Source: a virus
Taxonomy: Duplodnaviria; Caudoviricetes
Strand: one strand, 5' to 3'
DNA: 64,000 nt
IMG/VR virus record: IMGVR_UViG_3300046689_000961
Span: 575-64,574 of that record
The notes below the pieces were generated by a model that was given only the letters and a program-made list of their open reading frames with translations, searched no databases and had not been told where the DNA came from. A program made the position numbers and the translations under genes. Below, piece after piece: positions 49,259 to 64,000 of this stretch (the stretch's first letter is position 1; each line of letters opens with the position of its first letter).

Positions 49259-49268
49259 GGCCGCGGCT

Positions 49269-49417
49269 ACAGTATCTCCGCGACGGCGCCACGTCAATAG
49301 TGTGGTAACTGCGCGACACCCCCACATTTAGTGGCTTGACTGCCAGATGGGACATGGCGCACCATGTCACCCGTGTCACATAACCACTTGACAGCCGTTG
49401 CGGCCCTCGACTAGGAT
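49269..49417. promoter_or_regulatory. Divergent promoters between the helicase gene and the replication operon
   Basis: Minus strand TTGACG-N17-TACTGT; plus strand TTGACA-N18-TAGGAT 7 nt before ATG 49425 (leaderless). Confidence 0.55.
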
Positions 49418-49718: not shown

Positions 49719-50005
49719 TGGCCGGCCTCCTCTACACGAATACGCAGGTGAACGGCGCGACCGTCGCGACGAGTTCGTGCGTCCTCAGCGGCAGCGCCGA
49801 GGCGCCCGACGAGCACCATGTCGCGTTTGCGAGGCAGCTCGGTGAGGGATCTCCCGTGTTGACGCTCCACGTCGATACGTGGGTGCCGGAGCGGAACCGG
49901 CGAGACCGGCTCTCGTGCTCCTTCGCAGACTTCGTGGCGTGGCTCGAGGCGCGCGAGGCGGCGGCGGCGAGTGTGCTGGACGCCTCGGGCGACGACGGCG
50001 CGTAG
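49718..50005 (+). CDS. Hypothetical protein
   Basis: Coupled start MAGLLY. Confidence 0.55.
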   Translation: MAGLLYTNTQVNGATVATSSCVLSGSAEAPDEHHVAFARQLGEGSPVLTLHVDTWVPERNRRDRLSCSFADFVAWLEAREAAAASVLDASGDDGA

Positions 50006-50007
50006 CC

Positions 50008-51387
50008 ATGGCCCTCACCCTTTGGCTTGTCGACCGCTCGCGGTACGAGACCGGCACCGGCCACTGTGCCTGGGACCGCTACCTCACCTATCACGCCGGC
50101 CCGAACGGGTACGGGTACGCGCGCCTGGCCCAGTCGGTGCCGACGGTCACCGGGACGCTGATTCACGAGCCGATTGCGGCGATTCTGCAATGGTGTGAGG
50201 AGTACGACCGGTTGCCGACCGACACGTTCGTCTACGCGGCCATTCGCCAAGCGATCGAGACGTACGACCGCCTCGTCGAGACGCGCGGGTTGACGACGCT
50301 CGGTGACCCCGAGGCCCTCGCCAAGCGGACGAAGGAGCAGACGCAGCTGCTCGAGGGCCTCGTCTGGGCGTGGGCACGCGTGACGCTCCCCGCCTTCCTC
50401 ACCGAGTGGCAAGTGGTCCAAGTCGAGACCGAACGGGTGACCGTCATCGGATGTACCTGTGGGCTGGGCGACCGCATCGGCGAGGCCGAGGCCCACGACG
50501 CGCGCGAGTGCCAAGGCATCGGCTGGATGACGCGCGGAGACTGCATCGCGCGCCGGCGGCAGACGGGGGGCCTGGCCTACCACGACGTGAAGACGGCCTC
50601 GATGCTGTCGGCGAACTGGGAGGCGGCCTATAACTACCGCGTGCAGCTCATCGCGGGCGTGCTCGGCGACGAGCGCGTGCTCGGCCAGACCATCGACGAG
50701 GTGTACCTCTGGCCGCTGCTCAAGGGGAAGTACGAGTCGACCTGGAATGCCGAGGAGGGGAAGGCCAGCGGGCCCAAGTTTCAGAACTCGCCGCTCGTCT
50801 ACGGCTGGAAGAAGGCCGCCAACCCGCCGCTCTGGGACGAGGAGTGGGCGACCAGCTTCTACTACGTGGGCGACGACGGCAAACGCCACCGGCTGGGGAA
50901 GCTCTTCGAGCGGACGCCGCTCTGGGAGATGGACGTGGCCACCTGGGCCGGGTGCCTGTCGCCGGGGGATTACTGGACGCGCGTGCTGCTCAACGAGGGC
51001 AAGCTCGGCGAGACGAGCCGCGTGATTGGCCCGATTCACCGGGATGACTGGAAGCTCGAGAGTTTCCTGCGCGAGCTGCGCGGCGAGGAACGTCGGTGGC
51101 AAGAGACGCTGTGGGCGCTGCACGAGACGGGCGGCGTCTGGGGCGAGGCGGCCTTTATGGCGGCGCTCGAAGCGCGCGTCACGCAGAACCGCGGCGACGC
51201 CTGCCACCAGTACTTCGGCGAGACGTGTAGCAAGCTGGCGCTGTGCGAGCGCACGCCGGGCTGGGAACGGCCTGAGACGATCGGGTACATCGCGCGCCGG
51301 CCGCATCACCAGCCCGAGCTGGAGCAAGCGATTAGCCGAGGACTCCTGCCGCCCACTGACGGCGCGGCAGATACCGTAGAGGAGTGA
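50008..51387 (+). CDS. PD-(D/E)XK (Cas4/RecB-like) exonuclease
   Basis: DRSR..C..RY, GTLIHE, VETE, RGDCI, YHDVKT, VQL, C-terminal C...C..C cluster. Confidence 0.75.
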   Translation: MALTLWLVDRSRYETGTGHCAWDRYLTYHAGPNGYGYARLAQSVPTVTGTLIHEPIAAILQWCEEYDRLPTDTFVYAAIRQAIETYDRLVETRGLTTLGDPEALAKRTKEQTQLLEGLVWAWARVTLPAFLTEWQVVQVETERVTVIGCTCGLGDRIGEAEAHDARECQGIGWMTRGDCIARRRQTGGLAYHDVKTASMLSANWEAAYNYRVQLIAGVLGDERVLGQTIDEVYLWPLLKGKYESTWNAEEGKASGPKFQNSPLVYGWKKAANPPLWDEEWATSFYYVGDDGKRHRLGKLFERTPLWEMDVATWAGCLSPGDYWTRVLLNEGKLGETSRVIGPIHRDDWKLESFLRELRGEERRWQETLWALHETGGVWGEAAFMAALEARVTQNRGDACHQYFGETCSKLALCERTPGWERPETIGYIARRPHHQPELEQAISRGLLPPTDGAADTVEE

Positions 51388-51859: not shown

Positions 51860-52290
51860 GCGATCCCATCGTCCCGCCGCCCGGGTTCCGCGGCCGGCAA
51901 CCTCACGAGCGTGAGGCGCTCGAGCGGGCGCCGTTCAAGTGGCGCTGCGGGACGTGCGGGACCGAGCACTACACGCCGCCCGAGGACGGCTGTCAGAGCT
52001 GTGGCATGGGCACGCAGGCCGAGGTCGCGCGTGCGGTCGCCAGTCGCGAAGCCGAGACGGTGACTGATGCGGAGTTCACGCGCACGGTGTTCGCGCCGGC
52101 GAACGACGACGGCGAGGTCTTCAGCGCGAAGGCGTGGAAGACGATCGCGGCCGCCCTGGCCTTCTATCTGGCGCAGGGGCCGCCGCCTGAAGCCGAGGAA
52201 CTCCCGCGGGTGTACGTGCGGGCGTGGCTCACGCGCATCCTCGAGGACGACGACCCGGCGAAGGACGACGAGGATCCGACGACCGACTGA
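51856..52290 (+). CDS. Zinc-ribbon hypothetical protein
   Basis: GTGA coupling; WRCGTCG...GCQSCG. Confidence 0.55.
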   Translation: MSDPIVPPPGFRGRQPHEREALERAPFKWRCGTCGTEHYTPPEDGCQSCGMGTQAEVARAVASREAETVTDAEFTRTVFAPANDDGEVFSAKAWKTIAAALAFYLAQGPPPEAEELPRVYVRAWLTRILEDDDPAKDDEDPTTD

Positions 52291-52325
52291 CCGGCCCTGT
52301 CACGGGCCACGGAGAGACTGACGAC

Positions 52326-53840
52326 ATGACTGAAACCGTAACGACCCCAGCGGACGCGACGCCAAAAACCGACGAGACGAGTGCCGCCTCGCCCTCGGCC
52401 ACCCTCGTGATGGGCCCGAGTGGCTCAGGCAAGTCGAGCCTGCTCGCCACGGCGGCCGAGTACTGCTGGGAGACCTTCAAGAAGGTGTCCCTCTACTACT
52501 GCGCCGACGGCGGAGGCTACCCGACGCAGATGCAGGCGCTCATCAACCACGGCATCGTGCGCGTGTGGCGCGTGCGCTCGCGGAGCGGGCCGGGACTCGT
52601 GCCCGAGACGATCCACCGGGCCAGCCAAGGCTGGTGGCCGGTGTCGGTCGACCCGCGAACCGGCGAGACGGCCGCCTCGGTGAAGCTCGTGCCGCCGATG
52701 ACCGAGACCTACGAGACGCGCTGCCCCAACGGCCACCTCGTGCAGGTGTCGCCGATGCAGGCGTTCCCGCCGGCGGGGAAACCGTGCCCGACCTGCGCGG
52801 TGCTCGTGAGCGCGGCCAACATGCAGGTGACGCGTACCAGCCGGCGCACCAAGGGGTTCGAGACCGTGGGCGCGGTGCTCCACGACGGGCTCACGTCCTA
52901 CTCCAGCTGGCTCATGGACGACTTGAGTCGCCGGAACCTCGGCGGCGAGCAGAGCAACCTCGGCGGGATTGTCGAGTCGGGCAGCCTGCGGTTTGGCAGC
53001 AACAACCGGGCCCAGTACGGGTTCACCCAGGCGCGGGCGGAGAACTGGATCCTCAATGCCCAGTCGATTCCCGGCATGGTCATGTCGCCCATCTGGACGG
53101 CCCTGCCCAAGGAAGGCGACGACGAGAGTCTCACCGTCGTCGGCCCAGACTTCGCCGGGAGCGCCAAGATCGCGGCCGCGCTCCAGTGGTTCGGGAACAC
53201 GTTCGAGGTGATGGAGGTCGAGCGGGACGGGAAGAAGTACCGACGCATCATGCTGTCGCCCTACGTCGACGCGGCCGGCCGCCGGCACATGTGTAAGACG
53301 CGCAGCGCGCCGGGCTATCTCCCCGCCTACGTCGAAGACGAGGTCGTCACCGAGACGGGCAAGCGGCCGGACGGCCGGACGTTTGTCGACTTCAGCCTCG
53401 GCTCGGTCTTCCGCATGATCGACCGCGTGCGCGTCGAACTCGAGTCCGACTACAAGGGGAAGTACCCCGACGCCCCGGGGTTGGGCGCCGGCGAGGTCGG
53501 GGACGCGGCGCCGGAGGGTCCGGCCTCGAGCGGGGTGACAGCCGCCGGAGTGACACCCGCGTCTCCGATCGCGCCGGCCGTCGGCAGCGGAGGGGGACGA
53601 CCGCTCAGCCCGGCCGAGCTGGTCGCCCAGCGCCAGAAGAAGGCGGTCGTGGCGGCCGCCCCGGTGGCGACGCCGGCCGTAGTGGCCGAGTCGACGACCG
53701 CGCAGACGGCGACCGCCGGCCCGACCGCACCGCCGCCAGTCTTGGCCGCGCCGACCGGGCCCAAGCCGATTAGTGTCAGCCCTCCCGGACGACGGCCGTC
53801 GACGTCGACGCCGCCGCCTGCGGAGACGAAAGTCGAGTAG
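52326..53840 (+). CDS. AAA_24/Sak4-like P-loop ATPase (recombination) with zinc-finger insertion
   Basis: LVMGPSGSGKSS, LHDGLT, CPNGH...CPTC insertion, Pro/Ala tail; flanked by an exonuclease and an SSB-like gene. Confidence 0.7.
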   Translation: MTETVTTPADATPKTDETSAASPSATLVMGPSGSGKSSLLATAAEYCWETFKKVSLYYCADGGGYPTQMQALINHGIVRVWRVRSRSGPGLVPETIHRASQGWWPVSVDPRTGETAASVKLVPPMTETYETRCPNGHLVQVSPMQAFPPAGKPCPTCAVLVSAANMQVTRTSRRTKGFETVGAVLHDGLTSYSSWLMDDLSRRNLGGEQSNLGGIVESGSLRFGSNNRAQYGFTQARAENWILNAQSIPGMVMSPIWTALPKEGDDESLTVVGPDFAGSAKIAAALQWFGNTFEVMEVERDGKKYRRIMLSPYVDAAGRRHMCKTRSAPGYLPAYVEDEVVTETGKRPDGRTFVDFSLGSVFRMIDRVRVELESDYKGKYPDAPGLGAGEVGDAAPEGPASSGVTAAGVTPASPIAPAVGSGGGRPLSPAELVAQRQKKAVVAAAPVATPAVVAESTTAQTATAGPTAPPPVLAAPTGPKPISVSPPGRRPSTSTPPPAETKVE

Positions 53841-53900
53841 TCTCACGCGTTCACGTTCGCTGTAGCAGGTACGACCGGCCGCAAAGGAGCGGCCTCTCCC

Positions 53901-54584
53901 ATGAGTCTCCAGGACATCGGTTCCGAAAAGCTGCAAGACACCGTCGACGTCGAGAATTTGCCCGAGCAGGGACGCCAGTTCCCCGACCCGCCCCAGCCCG
54001 GGACGTATCGGTTCGCGCTGTCCCCGCTCGACGACGAGAACTTCAGCGCCATCGACAGCCAGAAGGGCAAGCGCGTCCAGGTGCGCTTCAACGAAGACGC
54101 CCCGCTCGTCATCGTCCAGTCGCCGGCCGGCACGAAGAACGGCGAGACGTTCGAGACGTCGATTTCCAACATCACGCGCGAGCGCGGGAAGAAGGGCAGT
54201 GGCGTCGAGGCGAGCGACTGGGACTACCTCAACAAGGCGTTGAAGGAAGCGGGCCCGCGGCCGGCCAGTAACAAGGAGTTCGCCACCCGGCTCATGGCGA
54301 AGGCCGCGGCGAAGGCCGAGTTTGCGGCCGACGTCGAGTGGAGCTGGCGCTGCACGGCGACCCGTGACGCGTACTTCGCGGCCGCCGACGGCTCGACCCA
54401 GACGGTCCCCGAGACCGACCCGGCGACCGGCCAGCCGACCGGCCGGAACGTCCCGGGCTGCGGCAAGAAGCTCTACCAGAAGGACGTACCCAAGGTGAAC
54501 GGGGTGTACCCGGCCCGCATCACCTGCCCGGACTGCCAGGCCAGCGTGCGGGCGTTCGGCAACCTCACGCGGATTCGGGAGTAG
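53901..54584 (+). CDS. Putative ssDNA-binding protein
   Basis: PPQPGTYRF start motif, position after the Sak4-like gene, RBS AAGGAG. Confidence 0.5.
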   Translation: MSLQDIGSEKLQDTVDVENLPEQGRQFPDPPQPGTYRFALSPLDDENFSAIDSQKGKRVQVRFNEDAPLVIVQSPAGTKNGETFETSISNITRERGKKGSGVEASDWDYLNKALKEAGPRPASNKEFATRLMAKAAAKAEFAADVEWSWRCTATRDAYFAAADGSTQTVPETDPATGQPTGRNVPGCGKKLYQKDVPKVNGVYPARITCPDCQASVRAFGNLTRIRE

Positions 54585-54594
54585 GGGAGGGGTC

Positions 54595-54807
54595 ATGCCA
54601 CGCAGCCGTCTCTCACCGCAACAGAAGCTCATCCACGCCTTCCTCGACTTGAACGGCGCCGAGCAGGCGTCGCTCATCGAGACGTTCATCGCGCTCCAGC
54701 GCCGGGGGGCCCAGGTGCATGGGGCCACCCCGCGGACGCCGGCGGCGAAGACGACGCGCAAGCCGCGTAAGCCGGCCCAGCCGACCCTTCCGGGGACCGG
54801 GGCCTAG
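54595..54807 (+). CDS. Small basic hypothetical protein
   Basis: 70 aa, RBS GGAGG. Confidence 0.55.
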   Translation: MPRSRLSPQQKLIHAFLDLNGAEQASLIETFIALQRRGAQVHGATPRTPAAKTTRKPRKPAQPTLPGTGA

Positions 54808-54808
54808 C

Positions 54809-56014
54809 ATGGCCCGCGTCCCGTTCTTGATCGTTGGCGACGCGCCCGAGGGCCACTCTGGCCTCGGGCGCATCCTGAGAGACCTCCGTCGGCGGCTGAG
54901 TGACGCCGCCGAGGCCGACGCCTTGGGCGTCGACGTGAAGACCTGCGCCTGGGTGGCCGACCCCAAGTACCGCGGCACGCCGCCCTGTGGGCTGGTCACG
55001 GGCCTGGCCGACTGGCGGTTCATGAATATCGAGACGTGGGGCCGGGAAGCGGTGGAGTCGGCATGGCAGTACTTCTACGGCGACCGCCCGGGGATCGTCT
55101 TCACGATCTGGGACCCGGCCCGGTGCCATGCGTTTTTGGAGCTGCCGGCGCACCTGGCCAAGTGGGGCTACTTCGCGGTGGATGGGCATAACCGGCGCAG
55201 CACGTTTGGCGGGCCAGCGGCCGAGGCGGTGAAGGGGTACCAGGGCGTGCTCGCTTACGGGCTGTACGGTGCACAGACGCTCGCGCGTGTCTTCGACGCG
55301 GGTTCACGCGTGGTCGAGTACTTGCCGCACGGCATCGACACGTCGGTCTTCAAGCCGACGATGACGGCCGCCGCGCGGGCGGCCGCCGAGCGCATCATCG
55401 GGGCGCGGCTGACGGACCAGACGCGCGTCATCGGCTGTGTCGCGACCAATCAAGCGAGGAAGGACCTCGGGCTGGTCTTCGAGACGATGGCGAGCCTCAT
55501 CATGCGCGGACAGGACGTCCACCTCTGGTTGCATATCGACGAGCAGGTGACCGAGGCGTGGTCGGTCCCGCAGCTCTATGAAGACTACCCGGCACTGCGC
55601 GGCCGGCTGAGCGTGAGCCAGTCGGTCACGGATGAAGTCCTAGCCGCCTGCTACGCCAGCTGTAGCGTGACGATCGCCCCCGGACGCGGCGAGGGGTTCG
55701 GGTACCCGATCCTCGAGAGCCAGTGGTGCGGGACGCCGGTCGTCGGGTTCGACTACGCCGGCGGGGCCGAGTACCTGCCAGACGCTGGGCGGGCCCGCAC
55801 GCACATGTACCGGCCCGAGGGGCCGTACAACCTGCTGCGCCCGATCGGGGACGCCGGACACTGGGCGAGCCTCATCGAGCGGCTTCTCACGACAGACAAC
55901 GCGTGGACGATGCCCCCGGCCGCCCACCGCACTCGCTGGTCGACCCTCTGGCCCGAGTGGCGCGAGTGGGTGGCGGCCGGCCTCACCGATTGGAGAGAGA
56001 CCCATGGCCACTAA
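54809..56014 (+). CDS. GT-B (GT4-like) glycosyltransferase
   Basis: VGDAP..SGLGRI, LPHGIDTSVF, VATNQARKD, GEGFGYPILESQWCGTPVV. Confidence 0.88.
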   Translation: MARVPFLIVGDAPEGHSGLGRILRDLRRRLSDAAEADALGVDVKTCAWVADPKYRGTPPCGLVTGLADWRFMNIETWGREAVESAWQYFYGDRPGIVFTIWDPARCHAFLELPAHLAKWGYFAVDGHNRRSTFGGPAAEAVKGYQGVLAYGLYGAQTLARVFDAGSRVVEYLPHGIDTSVFKPTMTAAARAAAERIIGARLTDQTRVIGCVATNQARKDLGLVFETMASLIMRGQDVHLWLHIDEQVTEAWSVPQLYEDYPALRGRLSVSQSVTDEVLAACYASCSVTIAPGRGEGFGYPILESQWCGTPVVGFDYAGGAEYLPDAGRARTHMYRPEGPYNLLRPIGDAGHWASLIERLLTTDNAWTMPPAAHRTRWSTLWPEWREWVAAGLTDWRETHGH

Positions 56015-56240
56015 GCAGGTCATCGTGTGCGACCACTGCGGGCTTGTCATGCCGTCATTCGAGGGGGCCGAGGGCGTCAAGTTTCAGGACAAGCCGTACG
56101 CCGGGATTAACAGCTTTCACCTCTGTGTGGGCTGTGCGAAGACCCTCACCGTCTGGGACGCCATCGAGACGGTGTGCATTCCCCTCGCCACGGCCGCCAA
56201 GGCCGCGCATCAGGCCGCGAAGGCCAGAAATGTCAGGTAG
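56004..56240 (+). CDS. Small zinc-finger protein
   Basis: VCDHCG...HLCVGC. Confidence 0.6.
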   Translation: MATKQVIVCDHCGLVMPSFEGAEGVKFQDKPYAGINSFHLCVGCAKTLTVWDAIETVCIPLATAAKAAHQAAKARNVR

Positions 56241-56242
56241 TC

Positions 56243-56563
56243 ATGGCTGAGATTCTCAAGATGGACGGCACGCCCGCGACCCCACCGGCCGCGCTCACCG
56301 TACGGGACGCCTTCGGGCGCGCACTCGCGGTCGGCGACGAGGTGATTCTCCGCAACGCGCTCGCCCCGTCGGCGGTCGTCCTCGAGATGACGCCCGTCCT
56401 GCACCCGCAGGCGCCGCCGAACCTCATCGCGGTCACGTTTCAGATCACGCTCCAGCTCCAGGTGTCGGGGCTCCGGCCGGTCGGCGAGTTCGTCCTGGCG
56501 CGGACCCAAGCCGAGCGCGAGGCGTACCTGGCCACGCAGGTACCGGTCGGCGGCCAGCCATGA
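56243..56563 (+). CDS. Hypothetical protein
   Basis: RDAFGRALAVGDEV SH3-like start. Confidence 0.55.
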   Translation: MAEILKMDGTPATPPAALTVRDAFGRALAVGDEVILRNALAPSAVVLEMTPVLHPQAPPNLIAVTFQITLQLQVSGLRPVGEFVLARTQAEREAYLATQVPVGGQP

Positions 56564-57957
56564 GCGAGACCCCCGACGCCCCGACGCCCGTCGCCCCGCC
56601 GCCCGACCTGGTCATCCCAGCCCCGCTCGAGGCAGGCACGAGCTTCCTCTGCGGCCCGGCCGGCACGGGGAAGACGTACCTCGCCAAGGCGATCGTCCGC
56701 CAGAAGCCGGGGACGCTCCTCTGTGCGACGACCGGCATCGCCAGTGTGAACCTGGGCGAAGGCACGACCGTGAACGCCGCGCTCGGCTACTACGACACGG
56801 CCAGCCTCATCGACAGCTACACGAGCGGTCGGCTCACCGGCCGGCTGGGCAAGCTCTGGCGCAGTGGCGTCCGCCGGCTGCTGATTGACGAGGTCAGCAT
56901 GATGGACGCCGAGCAGCTCACCATCATCACGCGTGCGATTGACGAACTCTCCGGCCGCGGCTACGTGCTCGACCACCAGCTGGCCGACGAGATTGACGAG
57001 GACTTCAAGACGACCGGCGAGGGCGACGTCGCGCGCCGGGCGGCGATTAAAGTCATCCTAGTCGGGGACTTCTGCCAGCTCCCGCCGGTGAAGGCCCCGT
57101 GGGCGTTCACCTCGGGCGAGTGGCCGCGGTTTGCGGCGAACCAGCACCTCCTCACCGAGGTGAAGCGTCAAGTCGACCCCGGGTTCATCGCCGCGATGGC
57201 GGCCGCCCGGAAGGGCGACAAGGACACGGTCGTCGACTACTTCCGCGACCGGCTCGTCGACACGCCCGACCACCACTACGAGGGCATGACGGTCGTCGCG
57301 ACCAATGACGCCGCCGACCGGCTGAACCAGCTGCGGCTCGACCGCGTCCCGCACCCGCTCATGTACTGGGAGTCGGCGACGTGGGGCAAGCCGCGCGGTG
57401 ACTGGAAGAACATTCCCACGCGCCTCGGGCTGAAGGTCGGCGCGCTCGTGATGATCCTGGCCAACCGCCGACTGGCGGTGGACGGCCTCCCGAGTTACCT
57501 CTGGCCGATCGACTACGCCAATGGCGACCTGGCGACGGTCGTCGCGATGGACCCGGAGAAAGCCCGCGTGACCGTGCGGCTGGACCGGGGCGCGCGCGAG
57601 GTCAGTGTCGACTGGGTGACCCGCCAGAACACCATCCCGATGGAACCCGGTCGGAAGACGGCCTTGCGCGCGGCCAACCAGGACCACCTCATCAGCGAAG
57701 ACGGCAAGTGGGAAACGATCGGCGAACTCACGTATCTCCCGCTGCGCCTCGCCTACGCGTCGACCGTGCACAAGGTGCAGGGGCTCTCGATGGACAAGGT
57801 GCAGGTGGCGACGCGCGAGGGGATGTTCAAACAGCCGGGGATGCTCTACGTGGCGCTCACGCGGGCGCGCACGCCCGAGGGGCTGCGCCTGGTCGGCAAC
57901 GTCGATGGGCTGCGCGAGCGCGTGACCGTGCACCCGGATCTGGGGGCCTGGCTATGA
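56560..57957 (+). CDS. Pif1/RecD-like SF1B helicase
   Basis: GPAGTGKT, ATTGIA, IDEVSM, GDFCQLPPV, LTEVKRQ, PLRLAYASTVHKVQGLS, YVALTRAR. Confidence 0.93.
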   Translation: MSETPDAPTPVAPPPDLVIPAPLEAGTSFLCGPAGTGKTYLAKAIVRQKPGTLLCATTGIASVNLGEGTTVNAALGYYDTASLIDSYTSGRLTGRLGKLWRSGVRRLLIDEVSMMDAEQLTIITRAIDELSGRGYVLDHQLADEIDEDFKTTGEGDVARRAAIKVILVGDFCQLPPVKAPWAFTSGEWPRFAANQHLLTEVKRQVDPGFIAAMAAARKGDKDTVVDYFRDRLVDTPDHHYEGMTVVATNDAADRLNQLRLDRVPHPLMYWESATWGKPRGDWKNIPTRLGLKVGALVMILANRRLAVDGLPSYLWPIDYANGDLATVVAMDPEKARVTVRLDRGAREVSVDWVTRQNTIPMEPGRKTALRAANQDHLISEDGKWETIGELTYLPLRLAYASTVHKVQGLSMDKVQVATREGMFKQPGMLYVALTRARTPEGLRLVGNVDGLRERVTVHPDLGAWL

Positions 57958-58280
57958 CACTCGGCGATTGGCTGCTCGTGGCGATTCTGCTCGTCCCAGT
58001 CGTGTTCGCGGCGCTTAGGCTCGACGCGCGGAGTCGCCCCGGCGGCGGGAAAACCGACGTGGTCGAACTGTGCGTTGACCTGGGCTGGGATAGCGAGGCG
58101 GTCTACACGCTCGCCCCGCCGATCGAGTGCCCGGCGTGCGCGACGCGGCTGCTCAAGGTCGACGTCGTGCGCTACCCGAACGAGGATTTGACGGTGAGCT
58201 GCCCGCATTGTGACGAGCGGCTGCCGGTTCAGCGCGTCGAGATTCATGGCGGGTTGACGTTTCTGGAGGTCGTCTCGTGA
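57954..58280 (+). CDS. Membrane-anchored zinc-ribbon protein
   Basis: N-terminal hydrophobic helix, ECPACA...SCPHCD. Confidence 0.5.
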   Translation: MTLGDWLLVAILLVPVVFAALRLDARSRPGGGKTDVVELCVDLGWDSEAVYTLAPPIECPACATRLLKVDVVRYPNEDLTVSCPHCDERLPVQRVEIHGGLTFLEVVS

Positions 58281-59377
58281 GCGGGCTGGCGAGGAAGCCG
58301 TACCGGATCCCGGTGAGCCGGCCGGCGTACTTCGGGAACGAGATTGACTACGTCATGGGCGCCGTCGCGCGTCGCGAACTCTCCATGGGCGACTACGTGG
58401 AGTCCTTCGAGTGGCGCTGCGCCCAGTACCTGCAGGTGAAGCACGCCATCGCGGTCAGTAGCGGCACGGCCGGCCTACACCTGGCGGCACTCGTCGCCGG
58501 GGGCGGCTGGGATTGCCTGCCGGCGCCGACGATTCTCACGACGCCGCTGACCTACGTCGCCAGCGCGAATGCGATCTGGTACTGCGGCGCATCCAAGCAC
58601 TTCGTCGACGTCGCCCCGGGAACGTGGCTCGCGACCGTCGCCGACGGCACGAACATGGGCGACGGCTTCCTCCCGGTCGACCTCTACGGGCTGCCGGGCC
58701 TCTGGCGCAGCGACGCCGCCGACTACGCCATCGTGTATGACGCCTGCGAAGCCTTCGGCGCGACGATCGACGGCCGGCCGCTGACGATGCGCGGCGGGAT
58801 CCACGTCTTCAGCTTCTACGGGAACAAGATCGTGACGACCGGTGAGGGCGGCCTCGTGACGACCGACGACGACGACGACGCGCGGTTGATTCGCCAGCTC
58901 CGCGGCCAAGGCCAGTCGCTCACCCAGCGGTACGTGCACCCGGTCGTTGGGTATAACTACCGCATGACGAACCTGCAGGCGGCGCTGGGCCTCGCGCAGG
59001 TCGAGACGATCGAGACGCACCTCGACCGCCGGCGCACGCGTGAGCACCAGTACTTCGACCGGCTGGGGGACACGCTCGCGACGCAGGTCGCCCCGGTCGG
59101 GGTGGAAGCCGCCCCGTGGGTCTTCGCCGGCCTCGTCCCGCCGCACGTCTCACGCGACGGGCTGATGGCCGCGCTCGACGCGCGCGGGATCGAGAGTCGG
59201 CCGGTCTTCCCGTGCCTGCACCGCGAGGGCGTCCATGCGACGCGCCAGCGGCTGCCGGTGGCCGAGGACATCAGCGCCCGTGGGATCGTGCTGCCGTTGT
59301 ACGCCGAGATGACCGAGGGCGAGTGTGACGAAGTGTGCGACGTCGTCCTCGGCTGGCTGGAGGAACAATCCCGATGA
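58277..59377 (+). CDS. DegT/DnrJ/EryC1/StrS PLP-dependent sugar aminotransferase (perosamine-synthase-like)
   Basis: AVSSGTAGLHLA, PVDLYG, DACEAFGA, FSFYGNKIVTTGEGG (PLP lysine), GYNYRMTNLQAALG. Confidence 0.93.
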   Translation: MSGLARKPYRIPVSRPAYFGNEIDYVMGAVARRELSMGDYVESFEWRCAQYLQVKHAIAVSSGTAGLHLAALVAGGGWDCLPAPTILTTPLTYVASANAIWYCGASKHFVDVAPGTWLATVADGTNMGDGFLPVDLYGLPGLWRSDAADYAIVYDACEAFGATIDGRPLTMRGGIHVFSFYGNKIVTTGEGGLVTTDDDDDARLIRQLRGQGQSLTQRYVHPVVGYNYRMTNLQAALGLAQVETIETHLDRRRTREHQYFDRLGDTLATQVAPVGVEAAPWVFAGLVPPHVSRDGLMAALDARGIESRPVFPCLHREGVHATRQRLPVAEDISARGIVLPLYAEMTEGECDEVCDVVLGWLEEQSR

Positions 59378-60216
59378 CCCCCATGAAAGAAGGCCGTGTC
59401 GAGCGGCTCGACGACTCGACCGATGCCGTCTATCTCTACGGGACCGAGCACGGCCGGGCGCCGGGCTGGTACCTGCGCGAACGCCGTGCGGGAGGCATCG
59501 GGCGGTTTGTCGCCGGGCCGTTTGAGACGGTCGCGACGGCCGCGACGGGATACGCCGCGTTTCAGCACGCGATGACGCTGCGCGCCTTCCCGGAGCTGCC
59601 GGCGCTCACGATTCACGCCGCCGACAGTCAGCCGGTCGCCGCCCCCGTCGACTGGCGCGCGCTCGCCGCGGCGTACATGGCCATCCGGCACGTCGAGGCG
59701 ACCCAGGACCACGACTACTATTTCGCCGGGACCGCCGCCGGGCCCGCGCACGTCGATACCGGCGGCGCGCAGCTGTTCGTCGTGAACCCGGCGGCGCTCG
59801 TCGTGGCGAAGGCCACGCCCCGGATCGACGACTTCGTGAAGCTCGAGGCCGGCCTGGGCATGGTGCTCGGCCCGCGCGTCCACGTCGCCAGCTTCTGCCA
59901 CCTCGGGATCGGCGGCGGCATCACCATTCTCGAGGAAGGCGCGTCGACCGGCTCAGGCGCGAAGATCGTGTCGGGCTCGGCCGTCCCCTCTGAGGTCGGC
60001 TGCTCGGCCGTCCAGCCCGGCGTCGTGAACGTGCGGAGCTTCGCCTGGATGAAGCCGTTCTCGACGCTGTACGCCGGCGCGATCCTGCTTCCCGGGTGCG
60101 TGCTGGGCGCGCGGAGCGTGCTCGCGGCCGGGAGTGTGCTGAAGGCCGGGACCGTGACGGGTGAGGACGAACTCTGGGCCGGCGTGCCGGCCGTGCTGAA
60201 GCGGCGGGGGCGATGA
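59374..60216 (+). CDS. Hexapeptide-repeat (left-handed beta-helix) acyltransferase with extra N-terminal domain
   Basis: RIDDFVK, LGPRVHVASF, AGAILLPGCVLGARSVLAAGSV, WAGVPA. Confidence 0.8.
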   Translation: MTPMKEGRVERLDDSTDAVYLYGTEHGRAPGWYLRERRAGGIGRFVAGPFETVATAATGYAAFQHAMTLRAFPELPALTIHAADSQPVAAPVDWRALAAAYMAIRHVEATQDHDYYFAGTAAGPAHVDTGGAQLFVVNPAALVVAKATPRIDDFVKLEAGLGMVLGPRVHVASFCHLGIGGGITILEEGASTGSGAKIVSGSAVPSEVGCSAVQPGVVNVRSFAWMKPFSTLYAGAILLPGCVLGARSVLAAGSVLKAGTVTGEDELWAGVPAVLKRRGR

Positions 60217-60362
60217 GGGCGTTCCTCGCGGCCTGGTGGACGCTCTGGCGCCTCCACCCCGTGGAGGCGGCGCTGGGGATGGTCGTCGGGTACAGCCTGG
60301 CCGAAGGCGTGAAATGGGGCTGGCGTCGGTGGAGACGCCACCGCCCACGGAGGCGACGATGA
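60213..60362 (+). CDS. 49-aa membrane microprotein
   Basis: Hand translation MRAFLAAWWTLWRLHPVEAALGMVVGYSLAEGVKWGWRRWRRHRPRRRR; ATGA overlaps at both ends. Confidence 0.5.
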   Translation: MRAFLAAWWTLWRLHPVEAALGMVVGYSLAEGVKWGWRRWRRHRPRRRR

Positions 60363-60676
60363 GTGACGACCAGCGATGGGCCGACGGCCTGATGCCAGAC
60401 GAACCGCTGTGGGTGCGCGACCTCGTGACGGAGGAAGTCGCACGCCTTTGGGAACTCGTGACGACGCGCGATGCGATGCTGGCGGAGCGGGACGCGACGA
60501 TCGCGCGGCTGCAGGAGAACGCGCGTGAGATGCGCGATGCCCTCAGCGACTACGCCACGCCCGGTGAAGGCTGGCGCGACACGTGGCACGCGGACGTCTT
60601 CGAGCGGTCACGACGACTCGCGCCTGACGCAACTGCTCTGACGCCCGCGAAGGAGGCCGACCGTGAAGGAGTTTGA
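60359..60676 (+). CDS. Hypothetical coiled-coil protein
   Basis: MSDDQRW..., RBS GGAGG. Confidence 0.55.
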   Translation: MSDDQRWADGLMPDEPLWVRDLVTEEVARLWELVTTRDAMLAERDATIARLQENAREMRDALSDYATPGEGWRDTWHADVFERSRRLAPDATALTPAKEADREGV

Positions 60677-60900
60677 CGTGCGGGCCTGTCCGACCTGCGG
60701 CGGCGACGGTCGCACGCGGCTGGTGAATCCGGACTGGCTGAGGATGAAGCGGAACGGCGCCGGGCTGACCTTGCGCGACGTGGCGAAGCGACTGCACATC
60801 AGCGCGGTCTACGTCTGCGACATCGAACTCGGCCGACGTGCCGTGCCCGCGCGCCTGCATGACCTGTATCGCACGTTCACCGCGAAGGAGGCCGACCGTG
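60645..60900 (+). repeat. 21-bp direct repeat flanking the HTH gene
   Basis: CCGCGAAGGAGGCCGACCGTG at 60645-60665 and 60880-60900. Confidence 0.9.
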
Positions 60901-60905
60901 GCTAA
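60663..60905 (+). CDS. XRE-family HTH protein with CxxCxG motif
   Basis: LRMKRNGAGLTLRDVAKRLHISAVYVCDIELGRR. Confidence 0.8.
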   Translation: MKEFDVRACPTCGGDGRTRLVNPDWLRMKRNGAGLTLRDVAKRLHISAVYVCDIELGRRAVPARLHDLYRTFTAKEADRG

Positions 60906-61167
60906 GCCCGACGCGCAGACGGACACGCGCTACTCGGCGGAGGAACTGCGGCAGGTGGCCGAGTGGCCTGCCGTCACCACAGGACTGCCAAAGGTCGTCG
61001 CCATGCTCCGCCAAGCCGCCCGAGACGCCGAGACGCTGGCGGGGATTCGGGCGTGGCTGGAGAAACAACAGCACGGCGGCGTGTCTGGCGAATACAGCGA
61101 AGGCTTGGTGTTCTCAGCCAAAGAGGGCCTGCGCGAACTCAACCGGCTCTCCCGAGGTGACGCATGA
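60898..61167 (+). CDS. Hypothetical protein
   Basis: GTG start after AAGGAGG. Confidence 0.55.
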   Translation: MAKPDAQTDTRYSAEELRQVAEWPAVTTGLPKVVAMLRQAARDAETLAGIRAWLEKQQHGGVSGEYSEGLVFSAKEGLRELNRLSRGDA

Positions 61168-61514
61168 CTGACTGGGCGAAACAGCTCACCGACCACGATT
61201 GGCCGAAGACTGACCGGACGCTCTCGGCGGCGGAGTTGGAGGCGCTGATGCCAGACGACTTGACCCTTATCGCGGAACTGCTCCGGCGAGATGCTGCCGG
61301 GGCCGCGGGCGTCTACATGAGTCCGAGCGACGTGCGCCACGAAGCGGCGCGGTTGCTTGACATGCTCGCCGCGGTCCTGCCAATGGCCCGACGCACCGAG
61401 GCCGCCGAGCGGAAGCTGGCCCGCGTTGAAACGCTGATCGCCGGGATTCCCGCCGACGACCCTTACAGCGCCGTGTGCGGCACCGACATCCGCCGTGCCC
61501 TCGCCGAGGACTGA
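61164..61514 (+). CDS. Hypothetical protein
   Basis: ATGA coupling, helical. Confidence 0.55.
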   Translation: MTDWAKQLTDHDWPKTDRTLSAAELEALMPDDLTLIAELLRRDAAGAAGVYMSPSDVRHEAARLLDMLAAVLPMARRTEAAERKLARVETLIAGIPADDPYSAVCGTDIRRALAED

Positions 61515-61527
61515 GGAGACCCTCCCC

Positions 61528-62283
61528 ATGACGCTCACCCTCTGTACGATGGTCCGCGACGCCGCCAGCCGCGGTACGCTCGCCCGCTTCCACCGGCAGG
61601 TGGGGACCCTTGAACGCCGCCTGCACGCCCCGCTCACCGTCGTCATTGCCGAGGGCGACTCGCGGGACCACACGCGCCTCGCCCTCGTGCAGGAAGCTGA
61701 GCGTGCGAAAGCCTGGCATCGACGCACGCTCGTCATGGACGTCTCGCATGGCGGCCCGTTCTGGGGGTCGACCGAGGAACCGGCGCGACTCGCCGGCCTC
61801 TCGACGATTTTCAACCGCGTGCTCGACGTCGCGACCGAGACGAAGGCGGACGTCGTCGTGTGGGTCGAGAGTGACCTGCACTGGACGGCCGACACGATCT
61901 TGCGGCTCGCGTCGCACGTCGACCAGAAGCTCGTCGCCCTCGTCGCGCCGATGACGCACGCGGGCGTCGCGTACTACGATACGTGGGGCTGTCGGCTGCT
62001 TGACGGCCGCCGGATTGATAGCGTGCCGCCGCACCTGCCGGCCGACTATCTGGCCGCGCACGGGGTCGGCGCCCTCGTCGAGATGGCGAGCGTCGGCTCG
62101 GTCGTCGCGATGAGTCGCCCGGTCGCCCGTGACGTGCGCATCAGCGGCGGCGGCGCGATTGTGGAATGGTGCGCGGTGGCGCGGGGGATCGGCCACCGCG
62201 TGTGGCTCGACACCGGGGCGCGCGTCGAGCACCCGCACGACGGATTCATGGGCCTCCCCGAGGCCGAAGGAGCGACGGCATGA
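61528..62283 (+). CDS. GT-A fold (GT2/Anp1-like) glycosyltransferase
   Basis: TMVRD, IAEGDSRDHT, VVWVESD (DxD-like), YYDTW, SVGS, VWLD..ARVEHP. Confidence 0.75.
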   Translation: MTLTLCTMVRDAASRGTLARFHRQVGTLERRLHAPLTVVIAEGDSRDHTRLALVQEAERAKAWHRRTLVMDVSHGGPFWGSTEEPARLAGLSTIFNRVLDVATETKADVVVWVESDLHWTADTILRLASHVDQKLVALVAPMTHAGVAYYDTWGCRLLDGRRIDSVPPHLPADYLAAHGVGALVEMASVGSVVAMSRPVARDVRISGGGAIVEWCAVARGIGHRVWLDTGARVEHPHDGFMGLPEAEGATA

Positions 62284-62480
62284 GTACCCCGCACACATTC
62301 AAAGTCGGCGACCGCGTGACCTACACGCCCGCCTGGGAGTCGGCCACGCGCCGCGACGCGGTCGGCACCGTCGTCGCGGTGCTCGACAAGGGCCGCGTCC
62401 AAGTGGAATGGGATCCGCTGCCGCCCGAGACGTTGATCAAGACGTACGCGGCGACGCAGCTCACGCGAGTCGAGCCATGA
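62280..62480 (+). CDS. Small SH3-like protein
   Basis: FKVGDRV...GTVVAV...VQVEWD. Confidence 0.6.
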   Translation: MSTPHTFKVGDRVTYTPAWESATRRDAVGTVVAVLDKGRVQVEWDPLPPETLIKTYAATQLTRVEP

Positions 62481-62632
62481 GCGTCGGGGGGCTGCTCGCC
62501 TCGTTTCTCTTCGCCGGCCTGACCGGGCTGGCCGTCCATTACGCCGCCTATGGCGCGGCGGTGACGCTCGCGCTGTTCGTCTTCGTCATCGGGATGGCCG
62601 AACTCATGGACGTTCTCGGAGACGCACGATGA
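62477..62632 (+). CDS. Small two-helix membrane protein
   Basis: MSVGGLLASFLFAGL...LALFVFVIGM; ATGA overlaps. Confidence 0.55.
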   Translation: MSVGGLLASFLFAGLTGLAVHYAAYGAAVTLALFVFVIGMAELMDVLGDAR

Positions 62633-63549
62633 AGGTCTGCGTCGCCCCGATCCCCGCCACCCTCTCGCTCTCCATGCACCGGCTCGGCCGGGCACTGGCC
62701 GACCACGCCCCGGCCGGCGTGACGATCGTCCCGACCTGGGAGGCGGCGGATCTCTCGCTGCTGCACCTCATCGGCATCGAGGACGTCGAGACGGTGATGA
62801 CCGGCATCTTCAGCCGCGGCGGGCACGTCGCCCTCTGGCAGCACTGCTACCGCACCGCCCGCGGGACGCCGCTCGATTGGACCGCCCTCTGGTCGCAGGC
62901 CTCGCTCGTCAGTAGCTGCTACGACCTGGCGTGGATGCTCGACGTCGAAGGCATCGACCGCGCCGGCATCGACTTTCACTTGACGCCGCTCGGCGTCGAC
63001 ACGACGGTCTTCCGCCCGTGCGGGTGCGCGCGGCACTTCTCGATTGCGACGAGCGGCTACGTCGCCGACCAGGAGTGCCTGAACGAGGTCGCGCAGGCGG
63101 TCTTCGCCACCCCGCACGCGCTGCCGCAGTTTCACCTCGGGCCGGCCAGTGCCATCACCGTGGCGACGCCGCCCGGCCGGGTCATCATCGCCCAGTCCGG
63201 CATGGACGACACGGAACTGGCCAAGCGGTTCAGTCGCGCCCAGTACGTGAGCGGGTTGCGCCGCAGCGAAGGGTTCGAGCTGCCGGCGTTTGAGGGGTTG
63301 GCCTGTGGCGCCCGGCCGATCATGTTCAACCGGCCGGATGCGCGCATGTGGATGGGTGAGCACGCGCTGTACCTCGAGGAGGGCAGCGCGGCCGACGTCC
63401 AAGCGCAGCTCGAGGCGATCCTCCTCACGCATCCGTACCGGGCCGTCTCGAGTGAGGAACGTGCCTGGGTCCGCGACACGTTTGACTGGGCGACGATCGC
63501 CGCCGGCTGGTGGCGACGCGTGCTCGCCGCGACAGGAGCCTCCCGATGA
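62629..63549 (+). CDS. GT-B (GT4-like) glycosyltransferase
   Basis: TPLGVDTTVF, SGLRRSEGFELPAFEGLACGARP, FDWATIAAGWW. Confidence 0.85.
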   Translation: MKVCVAPIPATLSLSMHRLGRALADHAPAGVTIVPTWEAADLSLLHLIGIEDVETVMTGIFSRGGHVALWQHCYRTARGTPLDWTALWSQASLVSSCYDLAWMLDVEGIDRAGIDFHLTPLGVDTTVFRPCGCARHFSIATSGYVADQECLNEVAQAVFATPHALPQFHLGPASAITVATPPGRVIIAQSGMDDTELAKRFSRAQYVSGLRRSEGFELPAFEGLACGARPIMFNRPDARMWMGEHALYLEEGSAADVQAQLEAILLTHPYRAVSSEERAWVRDTFDWATIAAGWWRRVLAATGASR

Positions 63550-63749
63550 CGGTGGCGCGCGCGGCCTGGATCCGCTGTGATAACTGCGGCGACTTTTGGT
63601 GCACGATTCACGAGGCCCACGTGGCCGACTGCCGCTGCCCGGGGATCGACACGTGGGCGCGCTGGAATCTGGACCCCTACGCCCCCGGGTCGGCGGCCGC
63701 CGGCCGGAAACGCTTGACGCCACGCACGTCCCCCAAGAGGCCCCGCTAA
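63546..63749 (+). CDS. Small Cys/His-rich protein
   Basis: WIRCDNCGDFWCTIHEAHVADCRCP. Confidence 0.6.
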   Translation: MTVARAAWIRCDNCGDFWCTIHEAHVADCRCPGIDTWARWNLDPYAPGSAAAGRKRLTPRTSPKRPR

Positions 63750-63970
63750 TGCCGACGATCACGACCGCCTACGCCGCCGTCTCCTACGACGACTTCTACG
63801 AGGAACGCTGGGCCTACACCCGGACGCAGCTCCGCGCCCGCGCGCGCACCGCCTGGCGACGCCGGCCGCAGGAAGCGGTCGTCCTGATGGGGTCCGACGA
63901 CTACACGCGCTGGCAGGCCGGCGCGTTCTTCCCGCATCGCGTCCCGGCCGGCCGTGCCCAGACCGCCTAA
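63749..63970 (+). CDS. Hypothetical protein
   Basis: TAATG coupling. Confidence 0.45.
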   Translation: MPTITTAYAAVSYDDFYEERWAYTRTQLRARARTAWRRRPQEAVVLMGSDDYTRWQAGAFFPHRVPAGRAQTA

Positions 63971-64000
63971 GTCGCGTCGCGCCTTCACGCCGAAGCTCAT

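Follow-up and report, generated by a model that had tools for sequence, protein, structure and literature searches.

Five sugar genes in a phage genome

We analyzed a 64,000-base stretch of viral DNA, referred to here as the window, which covers bases 575–64574 of the 64,574-base virus record IMGVR_UViG_3300046689_000961, and we focused upon five genes between positions 54809 and 63549 that are predicted to function in the synthesis and transfer of an amino sugar. These genes represent, in rearranged form, a conserved cassette specific to phages that encodes, in its canonical order, a DegT-type sugar aminotransferase, an N-acyltransferase, a GT-A glycosyltransferase, a compact GT-B glycosyltransferase, and a GT4-family glycosyltransferase. 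The first 126 bases of the record are identical to bases 64448–64573, and this overlap of the record ends indicates that the assembly closes on itself and that the window represents essentially the whole phage genome; completeness was put at 93% by CheckV. The G+C content is approximately 69% along the whole genome, and real genes were told from the many spurious open reading frames (ORFs) by their third-position G+C. An initial annotation of the window had recognized the same five enzymes from the sequence alone. All five proved to be real, and the start coordinates given there agree with the results obtained with Pfam, a family profile, and AlphaFold models coupled to structure search. The five genes are as follows:

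54809..56014, plus strand: GT4-family (GT-B) glycosyltransferase, 401 amino acids (Pfam Glyco_trans_1_4, 6.7e-12; Glycos_transf_1, 1.5e-08)
58277..59377, plus strand: DegT/DnrJ/EryC1/StrS sugar aminotransferase, 366 amino acids (Pfam PF01041, 1.8e-73)
59374..60216, plus strand: left-handed beta-helix N-acyltransferase, 280 amino acids (Hexapep and AntD-type family profile)
61528..62283, plus strand: GT-A fold glycosyltransferase, 251 amino acids (AlphaFold model with pLDDT 90.9, Foldseek)
62629..63549, plus strand: compact GT-B glycosyltransferase 'G306', 306 amino acids (AlphaFold model with pLDDT 96.1 and pTM 0.91; no Pfam match)

The amino-sugar enzymes

The aminotransferase, DegT, matches PF01041 with a score of 248.3 bits (cut-off 19.8), its residues 22–357 aligning with positions 7–359 of the 360-position profile. 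The best solved relative is the perosamine synthetase 3bn1 (9.9e-65, residues 10–354). Within this alignment the stretch 'fsfygnKivttgegg' is matched with 'FSFFGNKIITTGEGG' of 3bn1, and the lysine of the GNK motif matches the same residue there. We take this lysine to be the Schiff-base residue that binds pyridoxal phosphate (PLP) and that sets the aminotransferases of the family apart from the dehydratase members without it. DegT did not reach any NCBIfam equivalog cut-off (218 of the 420 bits required for the LegC family, 174 of 423.5 for PseC, 117 of 650 for DesI, and 111 of 631 for ArnB), and the NCBIfam search returned no perosamine-synthase model. From its sequence relationships the enzyme is predicted to act at C4 of a 4-keto-6-deoxyhexose.

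The start codon of the acyltransferase gene overlaps the stop codon of the DegT gene (ATGA), a coupling that the initial annotation had described and that is present in the sequence. When analyzed as a single sequence, the acyltransferase scored 26.9 bits against Pfam Hexapep, just below the cut-off of 27. A profile made from 21 members (alignment A3) matched the PDB entries 3vbp, 3vbn, and 3vbi at 3.6e-23 to 1.4e-22 over profile positions 37–190, and also matched QdtC (1.8e-14), the WlbB-type enzyme 3mqg (2.5e-12), and the perosamine N-acetyltransferase PerB 4ea7 (2.2e-08). Across the 21 sequences H170 is invariant and H176 is conserved in at least 90%, and we presume that these positions include a possible counterpart of the catalytic histidine of PerB/PglD-type enzymes. 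The entry 3vbn is described in the available portion of its source as the N-acyltransferase AntD with bound coenzyme A and dTDP (PMC6031040). The core of the enzyme is made up of the C-terminal 135 residues or so, the N-terminal 145 or so being an extension. This extension (window 59374–59810), which has no family match, is also found in one other cassette locus (L005) and is missing from most of the cassette homologues, these being 183–215 amino acids in length.

The three glycosyltransferases

The GT4 gene begins with an ATG at 54809 that is preceded by TAG, and its product matches the glycosyltransferase family phrog_2170 (1.4e-22). The residues E295-x7-E303 are invariant in 32 sequences (alignment A5). 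The gene lies upstream of a helicase gene, at a distance from the other four, and its product has 20–25% identity with the GT4 proteins of contiguous cassettes found in other phages, so its orthology with these is uncertain. Comparison of the GT4 protein with 50,697 GenBank phage records by tblastn gave 3 weak matches, none of them to a mycobacteriophage.

The GT-A enzyme was recognized by structure, as its sole Pfam match is a weak one to CAP59_mtransfer (2.6e-05), below the cut-off. A Foldseek search of the PDB with the AlphaFold model gave as top matches COLGALT1 (1.2e-11, template-modeling (TM) score 0.66), ppGalNAc-T1, Mimivirus R699, and LH3. COLGALT1 is the collagen hydroxylysine galactosyltransferase, and the best matches are thus protein O-glycosyltransferases; every PDB match listed for this model has the GT-A fold, being either a GT-A enzyme or a nucleotidyltransferase. 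The protein contains the motifs GDSxDxT and ESD, with G43, D44, D47, and T49 invariant in 17 sequences and E114/D116 resembling a DxD motif. Its nearest clusters in the ESM Atlas are 95–97% viral; its neighbor clusters there are mostly 93–100% viral, the range among those listed being 75–100%.

The compact GT-B enzyme serves as the marker gene of the cassette. Foldseek matched its model to the GT4 enzymes ManT (7qsg, 1.2e-11), GlgM, MshA, BshA, and PimA in the PDB, with TM scores by query of 0.68–0.74. The sequence E214-G-F-E...E222 is invariant in 55 sequences and corresponds to the EX7E motif that, in the C-terminal domain, marks retaining GT4 enzymes. The enzyme has 336 homologues in metagenomes, on contigs of up to 72,888 bases among the 120 listed, and its nearest ESM Atlas clusters are 95–100% viral. 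Neither the compact GT-B nor the GT-A enzyme had a tblastn match at 1e-3 in the 50,697 GenBank phage records. A predicted complex of the compact GT-B and GT4 enzymes, suggested by the adjacency of their genes and by a fused ORF in one locus (L015), was unsupported, with a score of 0.01 compared to a mark of 0.32, a result that speaks neither for nor against binding.

All five genes are under purifying selection, with ratios of nonsynonymous to synonymous substitution (dN/dS) of 0.16–0.39 when compared to a relative that is approximately 82–95% identical at the protein level, similar to the values for neighboring genes. None of the five enzymes has a transmembrane-like segment, the maximum 19-residue hydropathy ranging from 1.11 to 1.66 (1.11 for the GT4 enzyme).

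The structural matches bear upon one possible role for the enzymes, the modification of a cytoplasmic acceptor such as a non-virion protein of the phage or host or a small molecule, this serving for example to inactivate a host defense factor. The GT4 enzyme weakly matches the Pfam family GT4-conflict (0.0034, below the cut-off), the structural neighbors of the compact GT-B enzyme in the ESM Atlas include clusters with GT4-conflict, and MshA, BshA, SenB, and a tetrahydrobiopterin glucosyltransferase, all found as structural matches, are small-molecule transferases. The number of enzymes points in another direction, as a set of five that includes three transferases speaks for an oligosaccharide, whereas a single inactivating sugar would need fewer. 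An acceptor of this kind also leaves unexplained the constant position of the cassette between the head and tail genes of other phages, and we consider such a role very unlikely.

Conservation of the cassette in other phages

The window proteins were compared by tblastn with 78 other loci. Among the genes of this region only the five sugar genes had matches, and the sole further match in the 78 loci was to a tail-region protein, found in 2 loci. The five-gene matches are contiguous and in the canonical order in L005, L007, L012/L013, L015, L033, and L053, while L008 ends at the end of its contig. A second scan, seeded on the compact GT-B enzyme, gave 80 loci. All five genes were found together in 26 of 83 loci, and a GT4 homologue was present in 71 of the 83, mostly directly after the compact GT-B gene. 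Co-occurrence, which the initial annotation had proposed to check in related phages, extends to unrelated phages. In L015 (2323–4551 of a 10 kb viral contig) the compact GT-B and GT4 enzymes are fused in one ORF of 742 amino acids; as this is a single case, the fusion is possibly a sequencing error.

Variant cassettes (e.g. L143:7919-9974 and L131:6223-7029) keep both GT-B genes between head and tail genes, with other proteins in place of DegT and the acyltransferase. The replacements are sugar O-methyltransferases (Methyltransf_24 in 10 of 19 members, RMNT_CmcI in 3 of 19), proteins resembling GT2 (4 of 19), and a radical SAM enzyme in which a CxxxCxxC motif is invariant and the C-terminus is cysteine-rich.

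Outside of viral records the compact GT-B enzyme is rare. A search of 185,579 species, each represented by one genome, gave 8 loci, 7 of them in records of metagenome-assembled genomes (MAGs). These 8 loci lie in methyltransferase-rich arrays in which no phage structural context was recognized, and they do not help to assign a host. Distant homologues of the compact GT-B enzyme (29–35% identity) were seen in long arrays of methyltransferase and GT2-like genes (L160-L164 and L166), on MAG contigs, either cellular or viral, that are binned to the candidate phyla radiation (Woesebacteria, Saccharibacteria, Microgenomates, Patescibacteria, and others).

Position of the cassette relative to head and tail genes

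We took a census of the genes surrounding the cassette. The census set consisted of 22 five-gene loci, after removal of the window's 2 close relatives and 2 duplicates. ORFs were called and the proteins clustered with home-made procedures, the name of each frequent neighboring cluster being taken from a single member. In 21 of the 22 loci the cassette is flanked by annotated structural genes: head genes precede it and tail genes follow it in 12, only tail genes follow it in 8 (5 of which start at a contig end), and only head genes precede it in 1. The remaining locus, a fragment of 5.3 kb, has neither. For the larger set of 76 loci with the compact GT-B gene, the corresponding numbers are 28 with both, 25 with tail genes only, 7 with head genes only, and 16 with neither. 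Genes of the structural clusters in these 76 loci are on the same strand as the cassette in 247 of 247 cases, with 0 on the opposite strand.

Two gene orders illustrate this arrangement. The order in L005 is terminase, portal, protease, major head protein, a protein of 160 amino acids, the cassette, head-tail adaptor, Neck1, tail terminator, and major tail protein. In the other common order, the portal, head decoration, major head/virion structural protein, and Ad1 adaptor genes precede the cassette, which is followed by two small proteins, the major tail protein, and the tail chaperone. Another metagenome contig (74% G+C) has the decoration protein, head protein, Ad1 adaptor, and the conserved cluster c14 directly before the five genes. 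Virion proteins, given in the initial annotation as an alternative target, fit this position better than does DNA, the target preferred there.

An alternative is that the enzymes modify the host envelope, a surface glycan (O-antigen, capsule, teichoic acid, or cell-wall glycolipid) being altered at its cytoplasmic lipid-linked stage, so as to block superinfection or to stop progeny from re-adsorbing to debris. The nearest solved relative of DegT is consistent with such a function, perosamine synthetase having a role in O-antigen synthesis, as are the GT4 structural matches PimA and MshA, which act upon membrane-associated or small acceptors. A location within the structural module would not be exceptional either, as accessory conversion genes are often found within phage structural modules. 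However, no membrane component of the kind used by Gtr-type and other serotype-converting phage systems was detected: Pfam scans of the ORFs identified no flippase, polymerase, polyprenyl-phosphate or bactoprenol-linked transferase, or integral-membrane transferase or acetyltransferase, and the five enzymes themselves lack a hydrophobic segment. The scans also identified no integrase in these ORFs, so that a role in lysogenic conversion lacks a lysogen. Moreover, co-orientation with the late structural genes would place the enzymes too late for surface remodeling to matter, and the compact GT-B and GT-A enzymes are almost exclusively viral; the search of species genomes gave only the 8 loci of the compact GT-B enzyme. 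Modification of the host envelope thus appears unlikely.

Genes for precursor synthesis and base modification

Phage glycosyltransferases are also known to act upon DNA. The initial annotation had proposed that the glycan is attached to the phage DNA as a protection against restriction; in this reading the glycan is placed upon bases, and the genes are expressed with the replication genes in the window's lineage. Consistent with this proposal, the cassette in that lineage lies between the helicase gene and the gene for a polymerase that joins a uracil-DNA glycosylase (UDG) to PolA, is translationally coupled to the helicase, and is kept there in a lineage member of 52–70% identity. According to the available portions of two reports, phage GT-A and GT-B enzymes place mono- to trisaccharides upon hydroxymethylcytosine (bioRxiv 10.1101/2023.12.21.572611), and phage transferases build arabinose chains upon 5-hydroxycytosine (PMC13326640). 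Three nearby proteins of the replication module have no assigned function and might take part.

The documented routes to such bases, as far as the available texts describe them, need either a thymidylate-synthase homologue or a methyltransferase together with a TET-like dioxygenase. We performed six-frame profile searches for these genes in the window genome and in 4 full cassette-bearing records (n=5). Thymidylat_synt (PF00303) was absent from the window genome and was detected in 1 of the 5 records overall, approximately 30 kb from the cassette of that record. This match (L159, the record of locus L100, 55141–55650, minus strand) is partial, covering profile positions 57–230 inside a frame of 489 amino acids. 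Tet_JBP (PF12851) was found in 0 of 5 records, in a search that had no positive control, and the C5-methyltransferase family DNA_methylase (PF00145) in 0 of 5. Pfam scans of the called ORFs likewise identified no thymidylate-synthase-like, TET/JBP, or C5-methyltransferase gene. Enzymes that would make the sugar precursor were also sought: GDP_Man_Dehyd and NTP_transferase were each found in 0 of 5 records, their positive controls being detected in 14 of 14 genomes. The initial annotation had seen no dehydratase and no hydroxymethylase or TET gene in the window; this is true and extends to the whole genome.

These results do not favor DNA as the target. An essentially complete genome has none of the enzymes upon which the documented routes depend, 4 of the 5 full records lack a thymidylate-synthase homologue, and head or tail genes adjoin the cassette in 21 of the 22 other five-gene loci. 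In addition, the words 'aminotransferase' and 'acetyltransferase' occur 0 times in the available text of a survey of DNA glycosyltransferases, and no DNA glucosyltransferase is among the structural matches listed for the compact GT-B enzyme (to rank 50, PDB and BFVD). We therefore regard modification of the phage DNA as improbable, and this part of the initial annotation is not supported.

Neighboring genes and the lineage of the window

The following features lie between the genes of the cassette in the window:

56560..57957, plus strand: SF1 (PIF1/RecD-like) helicase, outside the pathway (AAA_30, 4.2e-17; PIF1, 8.2e-12; UvrD_C_2, 2e-07)
57954..58280, plus strand: small protein of 108 amino acids with a hydrophobic N-terminal helix and a CxxC...CxxC zinc ribbon
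60217..61527, plus strand: variable insert splitting the cassette, with small ORFs that include a helix-turn-helix (HTH) protein at 60663–60905 (HTH_31, 1.2e-07)

The stop codon of the helicase gene overlaps the start of the next ORF (57954) by 4 bases, and the stop codon of that ORF, which encodes the zinc-ribbon protein, overlaps the DegT start (GTGA). The zinc-ribbon protein has a maximum 19-residue hydropathy of 2.42, and a longer version of the ORF has weak Pfam zinc-ribbon matches. Among the loci compared, it was seen only in those of two close relatives (L001/L003/L084 and L002/L004/L083). The initial annotation had described the sugar genes as interleaved with helicase and SSB-like genes. 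This was borne out for the helicase and not for a single-stranded DNA-binding protein (SSB): no Pfam, PHROG, or NCBIfam match to SSB was obtained with the small ORFs scanned, and the six-frame search with PF00436 gave 0 matches in the genome.

Two IMG/VR contigs come from close relatives of the window phage and keep the five genes in the same split arrangement. The ORFs of the insert at 60217–61527 have weak or no tblastn matches in these relatives (L001/L002). The segment 62284–62628 also interrupts the cassette, and in L001/L002 the compact GT-B gene directly follows the GT-A gene. A more distant member of the lineage, L169/L170 (52–70% identical), was found by a metagenome scan seeded with an alignment, a scan with a single protein having given nothing. 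In this member the DegT, acyltransferase, GT-A, and compact GT-B genes are contiguous between helicase and polymerase, and in L169 the acyltransferase match (1979–2818) and the GT-A match (3051–3785) are 232 bases apart, without an insert of the kind found in the window. Placement between the helicase and DNA polymerase genes is confined to the window's own lineage, and the relocation of the cassette to that site is new.

Virion genes of the window genome are on the minus strand at approximately 2.7–42 kb and include terminase pieces, portal, the major head protein, an SU10-type adaptor, and tail proteins; replication genes are on the plus strand from approximately 44.6 kb to the end and then across the junction into a polymerase of 1009 amino acids.

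27533-28582, minus strand: major head protein

No match to window 54000–64000 was found in the 50,697 GenBank phage records by megablast, and tblastn of the polymerase against GenBank phages gave distant partial matches only, so that no cultured relative of the window phage is available. No tRNA genes were found in the genome, hence no clue as to the host. A scan of 53500–64000 for promoters and terminators gave 0 promoters and 3 terminator-like sites, compared to 3.0 expected, and so does not define transcription units. For three proteins of the replication module, encoded at 49879–51387, 52224–53840, and 53901–54584 (502, 538, and 227 amino acids), sequence searches of the PDB gave nothing informative.

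Some further features of the genome were observed. The DNA polymerase is a 1009-amino-acid ORF at L168:81-3110 (genome coordinates), of which window 47–2536 is the downstream part. Its first 190 residues or so match family-4 uracil-DNA glycosylases (TM0511, 3e-13; Thermus thermophilus UDG, 1e-12), and this region is joined to a polymerase domain of family A (Pfam, 2.6e-32) in a single fusion protein. The large terminase is present as two ORFs within window 34002–36268 on the minus strand, with an overlap of 46 bases; the ORF at 34955–36268 has a weak match to the large terminase subunit and the ORF at 34002–35000 matches phrog_24361 at 1.7e-09. This arrangement could be due to a frameshift, a split gene, or an assembly error. 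Within the plus-strand replication module, a gene on the opposite strand (48299–49327, minus) encodes a RecA-like AAA_25 ATPase with a C-terminal HTH_20 domain.

Proposed pathway and acceptor of the glycan

The pathway would begin with a nucleoside diphosphate (NDP)-4-keto-6-deoxyhexose made by the host, probably the product of a GDP-mannose or dTDP-glucose dehydratase; with no sugar nucleotidyltransferase or 4,6-dehydratase of its own, the phage must take this sugar nucleotide from the host. DegT would aminate the sugar at C4 to give an NDP-4-amino-4,6-dideoxyhexose of the perosamine or viosamine type, as suggested by the nearest solved relatives, and the translationally coupled beta-helix enzyme would then N-acylate the amine. 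The three soluble glycosyltransferases would build a short glycan with the N-acyl amino sugar upon a cytoplasmic acceptor, most likely a protein of the virion, or several (from the capsid, decoration, or tail), as the particle is assembled. The initial annotation had also supposed that an aminotransferase and a beta-helix acyltransferase together make an N-acyl amino-deoxy sugar and that several transferases yield a multi-sugar glycan. That reasoning holds, and the joint occurrence of the five genes as a single cassette in unrelated phages adds to its strength.

Taken as a whole, the conversion of a host 4-keto-6-deoxy sugar nucleotide to an N-acyl-4-amino-4,6-dideoxyhexose, with a short glycan built upon virion proteins, is the interpretation that we favor, with a confidence slightly above even. 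We infer the nucleotide carrier, the acyl group, the structure of the glycan, and the acceptor from the relationships of the enzymes and the position of their genes. Virion proteins are favored because in unrelated phages the cassette has head genes on one side and tail genes on the other and is co-oriented with the late genes, because the GT-A model resembles protein O-glycosyltransferases, and because the variant cassettes parallel those of the cluster O mycobacteriophages and Mimivirus decorates its fibrils with N-acetylviosamine.

Several findings weigh against this interpretation. The sugar genes of the window's lineage lie away from the virion genes, with helicase on one side and DNA polymerase on the other, on the strand that carries the replication genes; the helicase, zinc-ribbon protein, DegT, and acyltransferase genes are joined by overlapping stop and start codons. 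The retention of this placement in the 52–70% identical L169/L170 indicates that it is not a recent accident. A base-modifying enzyme of a new type could be concealed among the three replication-module proteins of 502, 538, and 227 amino acids. The loci counted in the census cannot be treated as independent, the 52 proteins of this size class comprising 44 distinct ones, and many phages carry unrelated accessory genes between head and tail genes, which makes the position of the cassette suggestive rather than proof. By eye, the capsid, decoration, and tail-tube proteins of cassette-bearing phages have no common Ser/Thr-rich C-terminal tail. No GenBank phage record, those of glycosylated mycobacteriophages included, contains a BLAST-level homologue of the compact GT-B or the GT-A enzyme, so that the analogy to mycobacteriophages is one of function only.

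The placement in the window's lineage raises the question of whether the cassette moved beside the helicase in order to glycosylate the phage DNA itself, or else a protein attached to this DNA as it replicates or once it is packaged, without a hydroxymethyl- or hydroxy-pyrimidine precursor. We give this proposal a slim chance. If it were true, such a route, with an N-acyl amino sugar, would bring a new acceptor chemistry to DNA glycosylation, perhaps made possible by one of the unassigned replication-module proteins.

Relationship to known systems

Glycosylation of tailed-phage particles has been described, in the available portions of the literature, for some actinobacteriophages, chiefly mycobacteriophages (PMC11600133, PMC11256854). 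The available text on the cluster O (Corndog-type) mycobacteriophages describes an O-methyltransferase gene followed by three tandem glycosyltransferase genes, with modification of the capsid and tail tube (PMC11600133), and that on the cluster F1 mycobacteriophages (Che8) describes glycosylated capsids and glycosyltransferase genes located far from the structural genes (PMC11256854); mycobacteriophage virion glycosylation is attributed to Freeman et al. 2023, as cited in PMC11600133, PMC11256854, and PMC12619734. The cassette resembles these systems in combining phage transferases with sugar-tailoring enzymes, the F1 genes are distant from the structural genes as are those of the window, and the variant cassettes, as in cluster O, include O-methyltransferases. 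The F1 precedent weakens an argument that the initial annotation had drawn from the position in the replication operon, a position that is real for the window's lineage. Association with virion genes is absent in the window and present in 21 of the 22 other five-gene loci. Unlike the mycobacteriophage systems, the cassette is known from its genes alone, includes an amino-sugar branch (DegT and the N-acyltransferase), and has compact GT-B and GT-A enzymes without a tblastn match.

A viral precedent for the amino sugar itself is found in Mimivirus. In the available text of PMC10117803, the 4,6-dehydratase R141, the PLP-dependent aminotransferase L136, the N-acetyltransferase/glycosyltransferase L142, and several GT2 enzymes give rise to N-acetylviosamine on the fibrils. 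As far as that text describes it, the Mimivirus system shares with the cassette a viral DegT-type aminotransferase and N-acetyltransferase leading to a 4-acylamido-4,6-dideoxyhexose, clustered transferases, and the virion surface as the site of the sugar; in addition, R699 is among the structural matches of the GT-A model. The systems differ in that Mimivirus has its own dehydratase, infects a eukaryote rather than a bacterium, and uses other transferase families, the phage version occupying approximately 5 kb. The bacterial pathways for perosamine, viosamine, and anthrose (Per with PerB; the Ant operon with AntD) likewise proceed by C4 transamination and then N-acylation, in keeping with the matches to 3bn1, AntD, and PerB. 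In contrast to these, the phage lacks the upstream dehydratase and nucleotidyltransferase, its DegT reaches no equivalog cut-off, and its genes are not part of an O-antigen or spore-coat locus. The known forms of phage DNA glycosylation (T-even glucosyl-hydroxymethylcytosine, TET/methyltransferase-dependent modification, and arabinosyl-5-hydroxycytosine), as described in the available texts, share with the cassette the use of GT-A and GT-B enzymes, multi-sugar products, and a location among replication genes. They differ in having a precursor-forming enzyme, which is absent here, and amino-sugar tailoring enzymes are not mentioned in the available text of the survey.

Among the papers listed in a full-text literature search, no title or abstract describes a cassette of DegT, acyltransferase, and glycosyltransferase genes within the structural module of a phage. 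As the superfamilies of the enzymes are known, and as viruses are known to encode glycosylation of their virions, the cassette does not represent a new category. What is new is a cassette that has two phage-specific transferase families and a host-dependent amino-sugar branch, is widespread in uncultured phages, and occupies a conserved place within the structural module.

If the cassette decorates virions, then particle glycosylation would be a widespread phage trait rather than a peculiarity of the actinobacteriophages, and this would bear on phage stability, on adsorption, and on immune recognition in therapy. The cassette would also constitute a minimal route to a rare sugar, in which two enzymes tap a 4-keto-6-deoxy intermediate of the host. 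The lineage of the window, with its sugar genes beside the helicase and polymerase genes, is a natural case in which to test whether these enzymes are able to act upon another target.

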